From: a virus
Taxonomy: Duplodnaviria > Heunggongvirae > Uroviricota > Caudoviricetes
Strand: one strand, 5' to 3'
Length of the DNA stretch: 7,879 bases
Virus record (IMG/VR): IMGVR_UViG_2648501338_000002
Location: 1 to 7,879 of that record
In this document: positions 3,001 through 6,000 of the stretch, one piece after another
How the letters are laid out: each line of letters opens with the position of its first letter
Position numbering within the stretch: position 1 is the stretch's first letter
Program-made: the position numbers

Positions 3001-6000
3001 ATTTTGCATTTCCTTCGCGCTGGTTTAGCCATTAAGCAGCCTCCCCTGTTACTTTAAGCATTCCGTTATCTAGCAGCTTTCTTGTCAGCCACTGTTGACC
3101 ACGCCCGGTGATTTTTGTGGTGAACGATATCTGTATTCCGTGATTTGTATTGACCGCTGTTTCTTTCACTGTGAAATAGCCGCGATCCATATATTCCTGC
3201 ATTGGCACATTGCGCCGGGCACCTGAAGCAATAAGGATTTTGTGATCGCGCATCCACGCAAACAGTTTGTTTGGACCAATACCAACAACCTTTGCAAAGT
3301 TTCCAATCAAAATTCCGCTGGCCTCGCCAACTCGATCGGCAAACTCAACTTTAGGTGCTGCGAGAGCAAGCTGTTTCTCCAGTTCAGCCTTCTGGTCTTC
3401 AAGGTCGGCCGCAAGGCGCAATGCCTCAGAAAAGGTTTGTGGTATTTTCGCGGTTGCCCCTTCGAGTTCTCGCCAGCGGTCAACAAGGCGAGCGGTGAAT
3501 TCCGGCGACAACTGGGCAACGACAATAATGCTGTCGCGCTTACCTTTTTCGCCTTCGAAGACGTAATGCTCGTACTGAACATTGAACCCTAAGTTATTGA
3601 TTCTTTCGGAAACCTCAATTTGAGGAAGCCGGATAACTCCACTTTTAACCAGCGTTTCGATGGTTCGTTTCACATTGTCATGACGCTTACCTGTAAGCTC
3701 AGCGATTTCAATGCTAGTCATTTTGATGACGTTGCTATTTATCAGCTCGTTCATTGTCATGTCCTCTCATATTGAAAATTCACCAATAAAAAACCCAGCC
3801 GAAGCTGGGTTTGTTAAGTTGTCAATGGTCAGTAGTAATGCAGTGAAGGAGGTAAACTTACGCTGAAGGATTTGTACAAAAAAACCACCTGAAGGTGGGT
3901 TACTGTTACTTGTCTGAATCATCCAGTTCGTCTGTTTTCACATCCTCAAACCTTGGATGCAGGCGATTCATTTTTGCAATAAAATCTGAATAGTCGTTAG
4001 ATAGCTTCATAATCGTAACGGTTGATGACAGATGCTCTCTTAATTTTTGATATCCAATATTTGGCGTCAGCCCCTGAAACAACTTTGTACCTTTTGAGGC
4101 CTTTACGTTCTGCTTTTTAAGCTCCTCAAGGATGTTTGGTGCCAATCTCTTGTAGACGATATCATTTGTCAAAACGCCAAAATACTGAGGCCGGAAGCGG
4201 GGATTTTCCGGCGGGTATTCTAAGCCCCTTAACCTGAAAAGCTCTTCATAATAATCAGCAGGAAATGTTGTAATATAAGGTTGAATTTCCTTTGCGACAA
4301 AGGCCTCGAGTATTTTGGCGAGCGCATCTTTTTCTCTATCTCGCTGGTACCCCGTCGCTTCATCAACAAGCGCTATTATTCCGACTTTAGCTAATGAGCG
4401 CACCAGAATTTCAGCTTTCTTGGCTGTCTCTAACTGGTTTGGCCTGGTGATAGCGCCTGCCTCTCTTGCCTTTAAATAAACATCGCAGACAAGAGGTATT
4501 ATGGATGCGTCATAACCTTCCTGGACGGAGCCAGTAATCGTCTTGTATTTGACCTTATTGATCACACCCATAACATCTTGATTTATATATTTTTTAAGGT
4601 TTGCAGCATCCATAAAAGCGGGCATATTGATCACCCCCTCTTCTTGAGGTGCTCTACCCCCTCTTTGTGGTCGGCCAAATGCTTTAAAAACAGAAGCTTG
4701 TGATATGATACGCCGTCCATTTTCGAGAACCGCGACATCTAATTCCGCATCACCGATCTTTAACTTTCCCTCATTCGCAGATACGGGCAATAAAGCTTTT
4801 TCTTTTTTTGCGGCAACAGCCTTTCTTGAGGATTCTTTTCTTTGCTCTGCTGTCATTTTTGCCGCGCGTGCCTTACCGCCTTTGGCCTTCCCACTAACAT
4901 CATCATTTTTCATGAGCATATCTCGTGTTGTGATTGATAAGTCAATCATACACATGCACGTTGTAACGTGCAATATTTAAATATGCACGTAAATTGCGAA
5001 TCAGATAATGAGGAGACTTTCTCCCCCTTGCACTGACATCATGGTATTCTGCTCAAAACTAAATTTCTGGAGCGTTTCGTTGGAAGGTATTTGCAGTTTT
5101 CGCAGATGATGTCGGTGATGCTTCTTTGCTGTCGCCTCATGCCGCCCTCCTGACGCCCTGCCCGATCGCCATCAATGCCGCTTTGGATACGGTAGTAAAC
5201 ATTCGTCGAGGACTGATGAACGGTCGCCAAATCAGCAGCATGGAGCCTTTGCTGTTTCCCTTCTTCTCCAGCCCTGTCGATGGTTCGATAAAATTAATCC
5301 GTCCATCAGTGATGATGCGAACTTCGTCAACACTCTCCAGAGCCTTGCTGAACCATCCGACTGACATATCCTCTGGCACAAGCATAACTACCGTCTGTCG
5401 CTGTTGTATGCACTGCTCAGCGGCTTTTTCCACCCACGGCCTGATATTGCTGTACGGTGGGTTATTCCAGATTGCACCGTGGCTTACCCACTCAGAATTG
5501 AGCGCGTCGTCGGCCTCAGTCAGCCAGTGAGCGCACAGAGCATTTTTGTCGCTCGCTGCTGAATCCAGCCAGAATCCAAACTCAATATCCAGTGCATCAA
5601 AAAGCCAGAGCGGCGTTTGCCAGCAGTCCTTGTCGTGTGCTGGCGTATTTGATTTGATAGTCATGCAGCCCGATCTCCCCATCGCGCTTTCCATTCGAGA
5701 GCCAGTCGCGCTTCGTCTGACCACTTAACGCCACGCTCTGTACCGAATGCCTGTATAAGCTCTAATAGCTCCGCAAATTCGCTTACACGCATCCTGCTGG
5801 TTGACTGGCCTATTACCACAAAGCCATTCCCGGCAAGGTTAGGAACAACGTCCTGCTGCTTTAATGCTGCTGTAAAAACGCACTTCCAGCTTTCTGCATC
5901 CAGCCAGCGACCATGCCATTCAACCTGACGAGAGACGTCACCTAAGCAGGCCCATAGCTTCCTGTTTTGGTCTAAGCTGCGGTTGCGTTCCTGAATGGTT

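Follow-up and report, generated by a model that had tools for sequence, protein, structure and literature searches.

A mobile P63C gene cassette in the nin region of a 933W-like prophage, with candidate operators and a possible anti-phage role

Within the 7,879 nucleotides (nt) analysed here, hereafter the window (IMG/VR record IMGVR_UViG_2648501338_000002, positions 1–7,879; Caudoviricetes), a single AT-rich gene of the P63C family lies between a truncated ninE and roi, and the locus raises the question of whether this gene is an inserted accessory unit and what it might do for its carrier. All window genes are on the minus strand, and the region is the nin region of a 933W-like lambdoid prophage, with O, P, ren, ninB, a Dam-like methyltransferase gene (dam), the truncated ninE, the P63C gene, roi (Rha + ANT), ninG, ninH and Q. 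Over the 1.5 kilobases (kb) tested, the window matches E. coli strain C325 at 100% identity and phage 933W at ~99.5%. To the first half of the question the answer is plain: positions 3856–5062 are a discrete, horizontally mobile accessory unit, moron-like, and not a core gene. For the second half, a self-repressing gene whose product would most likely protect the lysogen or carrier against other phages is proposed tentatively, as a reading about which we remain somewhat more doubtful than confident. The gene and its P63C family were known already; the definition of the cassette, a cross-phylum code of predicted operators tied to residue 30 of the protein, and the range of vehicles that carry the family are new.

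Borders and mobility of the cassette

The cassette was delimited from breaks in flank homology, from copies elsewhere and from guanine + cytosine (GC) content. Its extent, and the elements that define or adjoin its ends, are as follows.

3856..5062, minus strand: whole mobile cassette, comprising upstream spacer, boxes and promoter, P63C gene and proximal terminator
5039..5140, minus strand: truncated ninE, 33 codons (Pfam NinE, E = 7.5e-16, model positions 1–26 of 58 only)
3878..3898, minus strand: proximal intrinsic terminator, stem 3885–3898 plus U7 tract, found by terminator scan; last cassette element
3791..3812, minus strand: distal strong intrinsic terminator (−15.1 kcal/mol, z −3.8), outside the cassette

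Homology to the Shiga toxin (Stx) phage YYZ-2008 ends at 3855 and restarts at 5063, and at the same ninE/roi junction YYZ-2008 carries an ORF6N-domain gene instead of the P63C cassette. The junction at 5062/5063 falls within ninE, at about codon 26, so that ninE is interrupted by the cassette; in E. coli genomes the remnant bears the RefSeq label 'NinE family protein'. Since YYZ-2008 has its ORF6N cargo attached at this position too, the ninE junction can be regarded as a recurrent recombination point.

Two further copies of the cassette were compared, both in E. coli prophages. In a P22-like prophage (L105), homology extends over window positions 3859–5062 and the copy is placed between the DNA-transfer genes and mnt/arc/ant (the immI region); in a myovirus-like prophage (L106), homology extends over 3876–5060 and the copy lies inside the tail/baseplate cluster. 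These copies are 98.8–99.6% identical to the window cassette and encode an identical protein, and across the three comparisons the cassette ends agree within a few nt upstream and ~20 nt downstream. The cassette is carried by 45–49 of 5,426 complete E. coli genomes, at least one flank being matched in 2,152, and it is present in 17 of 367 phage records. It is the sharing of the cassette, with agreeing ends, by three unrelated prophage contexts, together with the small number of genomes that carry it, that identifies it as a discrete mobile unit. Composition sets it apart as well: its GC content is 42.3%, against 48.2% from roi to Q and 51.6% from ninE to O, and GC at third codon positions is 0.40, against 0.48–0.59 in the flanks. 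The cassette is the GC minimum of the window, ~2 standard deviations under the mean.

An initial annotation of this DNA had described a self-contained, AT-rich, moron-like insertion among genes joined by overlapping stop and start codons. That description held: the insertion measures 1.2 kb and recurs, its ends in agreement, in three prophage contexts that are unrelated, its GC content is below that of its neighbours, and O/P, P/ren, ninB/dam, dam/ninE, roi/ninG and ninG/ninH are overlapping or abutting pairs. What alternates with the cassette at this junction, a point the annotation had raised, proved in related Stx phages to be the ORF6N gene, and the opposite view it had entertained, of a conserved core gene at this position, is contradicted by the genome counts given above. 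The limits it had set for the module, 3906–4990, were too narrow. Its placement of the gene was correct on the roi (antirepressor) side; the gene is not directly next to the Dam-like methyltransferase gene, since the truncated ninE, overlooked earlier, intervenes. Both of the terminators it had assigned to the gene were detected, only the proximal one belonging to the cassette. The distal terminator is part of the conserved roi-side flank, inside the YYZ-2008 homology at 3698–3855. The proximal terminator, with a stem of 5 bp (−8.3 kcal/mol, z −1.6), is weakened in the window copy by a mismatch; its counterparts in L105 and L106 have seemingly longer stems, as judged by eye from the junction sequences.

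The roi-side flank at 3788–3855, which holds the distal terminator, is 83% identical to positions 3492–3559 of the L105 locus. That stretch lies ~1.4 kb from the L105 cassette copy, between tailspike and ant-fragment genes.

The P63C protein and the boxes upstream of its gene

Over 337 amino acids (aa), the window protein and 933W L0095/NP_049495 share 100% identity. It matches Pfam P63C (PF10546) with 84.1 bits against a cutoff of 26.1 (aa 203–293, full model 1–93) and PHROG 2384 with E = 1.8e-146 (protein 5–336 against profile 2–337 of 338), the latter listed as 'unknown function'; in RefSeq the gene is annotated for 933W and has been labelled 'hypothetical' since 1999. The protein, which the initial annotation had not recognised as a characterised lambda-family product, is catalogued in all three resources. 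P63C was the sole Pfam match of the whole protein, with no defining antirepressor domain (Ant/KilAC, P22_AR_N/C, Bro-N, ORF6N or Rha), and no match was returned by NCBIfam models or by PDB sequence searches with the single protein and with a profile. No functional study of P63C proteins or of L0095 turned up in the literature searched, and the papers and database entries searched describe neither the cassette borders nor the boxes ahead of the gene nor the proposed reading head at the N-terminus. The family itself is large, with thousands of 90%-identity clusters. Full-length homologs at 42–60% identity occur in Proteobacteria, Actinobacteria, Chloroflexi, Planctomycetota, Acidobacteriota, Chlamydiae and others, and homologs from Streptococcus, Gordonia and Burkholderia phages are 47–50% identical over ~290 residues.

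An AlphaFold (AF2) model was built from a 122-sequence alignment (mean predicted local distance difference test score, pLDDT, 86.6), in which three parts could be distinguished.

4794..4892, minus strand: N-terminal basic helix pair, aa 10–42, GKAKGGKARAAKMTAEQRKESSRKAVAAKKEKA (AF2 helices 11–21 and 24–42, pLDDT 88–95)
4461..4784, minus strand: alpha/beta domain, aa 46–153, holding invariant V64 and R70
3960..4442, minus strand: all-alpha C-terminal domain, aa 160–320, with the P63C match (aa 203–293) at 4041–4313 and D186-E187-x-T189

Residues V64, R70, Q162, A183, D186, E187, T189, P244, Y256, L284, G289 and F313 are invariant. A Bro-N/KilA-N-like fold, which the initial annotation had suggested for the region after the basic tail, is plausible for the alpha/beta domain because Mx8 p63 has a Pfam Bro-N match in that position and because the weak structural matches, all below significance, are mostly to Bro-N/KilA and antirepressor proteins. 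The suggestion fared less well against Pfam, where the first 180 aa of the window protein, searched at E up to 10, gave no match, including none to Bro-N, KilA-N or P22_AR_N. Two P63C proteins of the ST104-type subfamily (P0122 and P0133) are named 'ribosomal protein S25' in one source, probably a mis-annotation, for which the Lys/Ala/Arg-rich N-terminal helices are perhaps the reason.

The gene and the elements ahead of it are laid out as follows.

3906..4919, minus strand: P63C-family coding sequence, from ATG 4919 (337 aa) or ATG 4913 (335 aa); stop codon 3906–3908
4921..4924, minus strand: weak Shine-Dalgarno-like GAGA, 7 nt ahead of ATG 4913, in the CACAACACGAGA-N7-8-ATG geometry of close homologs
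4931..4948, minus strand: small palindrome TGATTGA/TCAATCA between −10 and start, where Morganella has a fourth box
4945..4950, minus strand: putative −10 TATGAT, 5/6 against consensus, 17 nt after the −35; equivalent in Chromobacterium (L009) TATACT
4954..4961, minus strand: operator-like box 3, ACGTGCAT, within the promoter spacer
4966..4973, minus strand: operator-like box 2, TTGCACGT, in the opposite orientation to boxes 1 and 3; overlaps the putative −35; invariant in 7 of 7 aligned promoters
4968..4973, minus strand: putative −35 TTGCAC, 3/6 against consensus; same position and 17-nt spacer in L009
4983..4990, minus strand: operator-like box 1, ACGTGCAT on the coding strand, kept in Morganella, Enterobacterales, Xenorhabdus and Chromobacterium homologs

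The CACAACACGAGA-N7-8-ATG arrangement common to close homologs favours a start at ATG 4913 (335 aa); the ribosome-binding context, GAGA only, is weak, as had been noted earlier. A TTG at 4973 and the RefSeq 349-aa 933W start would both fall inside the promoter and boxes. The RefSeq coding sequence of the 933W protein (NC_000924 17532–18581; L001 3707–4756; 349 aa) starts in the predicted −10/box region, which suggests that the true 933W start may lie 12–14 codons downstream of it.

Three copies of a WTGCACGTW box lie over the putative weak sigma-70 promoter, boxes 2 and 3 forming a perfect 8+8 palindrome, TGCACGTT/AACGTGCA, at 4955–4972. The core TGCACGT occurs at three sites in the 7.9-kb window, all within 36 bp, and at four in the whole 61.7-kb 933W genome, three of them in the promoter cluster of the P63C gene. 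The upstream regions of 92 loci were then compared, 85 of which have distinct upstream sequence, with 120 nt scanned before each start. In these stretches a ~10-bp box recurs two to four times, its orientation alternating from copy to copy. It most often takes the form ATGCAAGCAT/ATGCTTGCAT, and its variants include TGCACGCA and, for the window's own group, TGCACGT. Among the 85 loci, which span many phyla, TGCnnGCA has a density of 12.0 per kb in the upstream stretches and of 0.35 per kb elsewhere in the loci, an enrichment of ~34-fold, and TGCACGT one of 2.1 against 0.09 per kb. Box density is 0.65 per kb downstream and 0.39 per kb within the gene, neither an enrichment, so the boxes are not transposon ends. 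At the start codon itself, ...GCATG is present in 18 of the 85 loci, consistent with a box that overlaps the start. Seven promoters of the group to which the window belongs, ranging from E. coli to Janthinobacterium and with proteins 47–82% identical, could be aligned: TTGCACGT is invariant and AACGTGCA nearly so, and the DNA farther upstream does not align.

Box type is associated with particular residues of the protein. Eight alignment columns separate the box types, three of them (residues 22, 30 and 38) in the N-terminal helices and the other five in the P63C region. Among classifiable loci, Ile or Val at residue 30 goes with AAGC-core boxes (38:0) and Ser or Ala with ACGC or ACGT cores (0:15), giving a Fisher p of 1.6e-13 with phylogeny ignored. 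Further pairs, each from few loci and read by eye, are Asn30 with TAGC, Arg30 with TTAGCA or TTAGAT, His30 with TGCGCA and Leu30 with CTGGCA. In a tree built from residues 46–325 only, the Ser/Ala30 types are scattered among the Ile types. Three homologs without the helices (Streptococcus phage Javan484, the satellite Javan441 and Mx8 p63) have no boxes and keep the core, and a distant homolog in 611R6 has the helices, Ile30 and four TGCAAGCA-type boxes.

Since residue 30 co-varies with the box core and the tail-less homologs have no boxes, the N-terminal helix pair is very likely DNA-binding, in line with the nucleic-acid binding proposed earlier for the basic tail. The simplest reading of these sequences is that the helices bind the boxes, that the P63C gene represses itself, and that the box-reading helix pair is an optional add-on to a conserved core. 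Self-regulation of this kind would make the cassette independent of its landing site. It is also the three homologs lacking both helices and boxes that make autoregulatory operators the best explanation of the boxes; aba-like self-immunity as their main role was considered and judged less likely, since these homologs keep the core.

Genomic settings of homologs and the function of the gene

Homologs are frequently found in lysogeny-linked accessory slots. In ST104 the order is cI, orf23 (P63C) and gene 24, with orf23 directly after cI on the same strand and in the slot, between cI and an N-like gene, that bstA holds in the related phage BTP1. The P63C gene likewise directly follows a cI-type repressor gene on the same strand in L062; in Streptococcus phage Javan484 it lies between repressor and integrase, on the strand of the repressor; in L017 two small open reading frames (ORFs) separate it from cI on the same strand; and in L022 and L033 the first large ORF upstream of it, again on the same strand, is cI-like. 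In a streptococcal satellite the gene lies between regulator and integrase, and in Gordonia phage Petra near repressor and integrase. It adjoins mnt/arc/ant (the immI region) in 611R6, L105, Morganella and P. aeruginosa; on the P22 map, sieA is located in this region. Other homologs are opposite-strand insertions in tail or nin clusters, and homologs also adjoin housekeeping genes in many phyla. A conserved operon partner was sought as well; a census of 123 neighbouring ORFs shows no consistently linked gene.

In L017 (1557–4281) the order is cI, a small ORF, DUF3024 and P63C. In 933W (L099 9937–12782) the genes that come after cI are DUF3024, a RuvC-like gene and the Ser/Thr kinase gene stk, so that P63C stands in L017 where 933W has the RuvC-like gene and stk.

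Transposons are a further vehicle. In 14 of 81 loci, spread over diverse phyla, the box region lies between P63C and a divergently transcribed IS1-family DDE transposase gene, and terminal inverted repeats (GGTAGTGTCTCAGTTTGAAAT-type or variants) enclose P63C and the transposase gene in L040, L043 and L094, or P63C and a different upstream ORF in L049. These loci, of environmental bacteria from several phyla, have GGTAGTGTC-type ends, and carriage as transposon cargo in such bacteria helps to explain the spread of the family. The IS1-family transposons with P63C cargo measure ~2.2–3.6 kb (L040 2981–5313; L043 2978–5338; L094 3042–5268; L049 1923–5488). For the window cassette a transposon explanation was rejected: the boxes are upstream only, and both a transposase gene and GGTAGTGTC-type repeats are missing from the window.

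From the anatomy and these positions we put forward, tentatively, a working model of the cassette as a mobile P63C moron. A weak sigma-70 promoter, TTGCAC-17-TATGAT, would drive the P63C gene, and the N-terminal helices, residue 30 especially, would read the three WTGCACGTW boxes and repress that promoter, giving low, context-independent expression wherever the cassette lands, including in a repressed prophage. The alpha/beta domain and the P63C core would form an effector that may protect the lysogen or the carrier element by superinfection exclusion or abortive infection. It might work much as BstA does, without being a BstA homolog, the DNA-binding front end steering the C-terminal effector to foreign replicating DNA. 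An anti-phage role is considered the most likely one because of where homologs sit (downstream of cI, in immI and in slots between repressor and integrase); a defence or abortive-infection role in particular is plausible, and it is position, and that alone, which strengthens the hypothesis. A bolder version, to which we give perhaps one part belief to several parts doubt, would make P63C a pan-bacterial single-gene anti-phage family of abortive-infection or exclusion type, not recognised before and carried by prophages, satellites and IS1-family transposons, in which the residue-30 helix reads a 5' 'self' tag (operator plus aba-like sparing signal) and the core attacks foreign replicating DNA.

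Several observations weigh against this model. The putative −35 is poor (3/6), and the promoter scanner at its thresholds called no promoter upstream of the gene; of the promoter with an operator-like palindrome that had been predicted earlier, the palindrome (4955–4972) stands, the hexamers are present and conserved in homologs, and the scanner gave no call. In the window the gene is co-oriented with the pR early operon, and expression may be also, or only, on induction. The DNA that encodes the helices adjoins the boxes, so the residue–box association may in part reflect joint inheritance or swapping of 5' segments. No effector chemistry is hinted at by structure: Foldseek against BFVD gave significant matches to family members only, and outside the family no relative of the C-terminal domain is seen among solved or viral structures. 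PADLOC-DB 2.0 returned no defence model, its only hit being a chance-level match to a type I S subunit (E = 0.0054), and known defence genes among the 123 immediate neighbours, sampled at about one ORF on each side, are only sporadic. Homology to BstA was tested and rejected, with an hhalign probability of 1.2% for the 122-sequence profile against BstA(BTP1) and a BLASTP E above 5. Finally, the proteins in which P63C was originally noted are antirepressor-like, Mx8 p63 carries the annotation 'potential antirepressor', and the alternative cargo of the ninE/roi slot, ORF6N, is also antirepressor-like.

The last of these points are the starting ground of an explanation that we think unlikely though far from negligible, in which the protein is a Bro/KilA/Ant 'antirepressor-like' regulator that acts in the development of its own phage or on heteroimmune prophages resident in the cell and has no part in defence against infection; its P63C domain might, for instance, bind a repressor or another regulator. 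Mx8 p63 combines Bro-N with P63C under its antirepressor annotation, the neighbour roi is Rha + ANT, the slot holds an ORF6N 'antirepressor' in related Stx phages, several homologs adjoin arc/mnt/ant, and the weak structural tail consists of Bro-N, KilA and antirepressor proteins. Such a regulator is, however, hard to reconcile with homologs outside phage circuits, as IS1-family cargo and beside housekeeping genes in many phyla; co-transcription with the repressor, for which several prophages place the gene, would be odd for an antirepressor, and 42–60% identity across phyla is unusual for the partner of a fast-evolving, phage-specific repressor. The same breadth of vehicles could instead be taken to indicate a selfish maintenance or addiction module, or a DNA-binding factor that serves its element by stabilisation, by transposase control or as a toxin-like function on loss. 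Many kinds of mobile element carry P63C, the divergent IS1-family transposase gene of 14 of 81 loci shares with it the intergenic region that holds the boxes, terminal inverted repeats enclose both genes or P63C and another ORF, and a single gene under tight, if putative, self-regulation is what addiction modules often are. We nevertheless consider this improbable: there is no partner antitoxin-like gene, no similarity to a known toxin and no hint of toxicity, and most loci, including the window, have no transposase gene, from which it follows that the P63C protein is not needed for transposition.

Placement in the nin region, in the orientation of the early operon and among DNA-transaction neighbours (the Dam-like methyltransferase, ninB and ninG), would also suit a counter-defence (anti-restriction or anti-immunity) or DNA-metabolism protein made early from pR, with boxes that only damp expression, and the invariant Asp-Glu-x-Thr with Arg, Gln and Tyr resembles an active site. 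Many homologs, however, lie in lysogeny modules or on the opposite strand in late operons, settings ill-suited to an early role, and no link in fold or sequence to a known anti-defence or nucleic-acid enzyme was found, so that the chance of this explanation appears slim. That the gene is an ordinary nin-region gene, its palindromes, promoter-like hexamers and low GC due to chance, is effectively refuted by the comparative data. Promoter-like sites are indeed fewer than expected by chance, with none upstream of the gene, and three TGCACGT in 7.9 kb were reached in 27 of 200 shuffles; against this, the three sites lie within 36 bp, their layout is kept in homologs of other genera and classes, the upstream box enrichment of ~34-fold holds across 85 loci, and most related phages lack the cassette, which recurs with matching ends in unrelated phages.

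Rest of the window, significance and known systems

At the other end of the window, downstream of the Q/tRNA region, an Rfam scan that gave no match inside the cassette found two prophage small RNAs, AgvB (anti-GcvB; 94–155, plus strand, 96.5 bits) and STnc100 (156–349, minus strand, 145.6 bits). Three tRNA genes follow Q (1121–1367, minus strand), like ileZ, argN and argO of 933W, and after them comes a TerB-domain ORF (518–1033, minus strand; Pfam TerB, E = 1e-15); no stx genes are found there in the window. A 50-aa ORF at 1408–1560 (minus strand), with faint likeness to the C-terminus of an N6/N4 DNA methylase (E = 0.19), may be a gene remnant.

In 933W the Shiga-toxin genes lie ~3 kb downstream of the P63C gene. 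Should this gene act in exclusion or abortive infection, it may influence the range of phages able to superinfect Stx lysogens, and a widespread defence family would have been missed by current catalogues; if it is a regulator, it would represent a widespread, self-contained regulatory module. In either case the result is a defined 1.2-kb unit, with exact ends, a predicted promoter, three operator-like sites and a predicted specificity residue. Conservation across phyla, and on phages, satellites and transposons, makes it appear that the P63C function works in many hosts, and the relation of residue to box may offer a compact natural example of a protein–DNA recognition code.

Of the systems already described, P63C/PHROG 2384 is the closest, the window protein matching it over its full length; the Pfam model covers aa 203–293 only. 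Phage morons, in the concept of Juhala and Hendrix, are exemplified by lambda bor and lom and by the morons of HK97. The cassette resembles them as a single gene within another operon, with its own terminator, deviant composition and presence or absence among close relatives; a promoter of its own is a candidate feature, positionally conserved in homologs and below the threshold of the scanner. It differs from them in its own predicted repressor function and in belonging to a family that extends far beyond lambdoid phages, including IS1-family cargo. The Bro-N/KilA-N/Ant proteins were reportedly described as modular, 'antirepressor-like' proteins by Iyer, Koonin and Aravind in 2002, and P63C is one C-terminal module of this domain-shuffling network. 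Mx8 p63 (Bro-N + P63C), roi (Rha + ANT) and the ORF6N gene belong to the same network, from which the window protein stands apart by its extra N-terminal helix pair with putative cognate operators, and the family by its occurrence outside phages as well.

BstA offers the nearest functional parallel that we considered. The interval between cI and N is a mosaic hotspot, bstA of Salmonella prophage BTP1 is a lysogen-expressed abortive-infection gene within it, and the aba DNA element of BstA comprises 29 bp upstream and 34 bp of coding sequence (Owen et al. 2021, PMC8585504). BstA and the window protein are both ~300 aa products of a single prophage gene, in which an N-terminal domain of DNA-binding type, very likely so for the window protein, precedes an uncharacterised C-terminal one, and both genes have their own terminator and a short DNA element situated at their 5' end or across it, the boxes of the P63C family often overlapping the start codon. 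The window copy differs in lying in the nin region rather than downstream of the repressor on the same strand; the BstA-like position is occupied by its homologs in ST104 (orf23), L062, Javan484 and, with two small ORFs between, L017.

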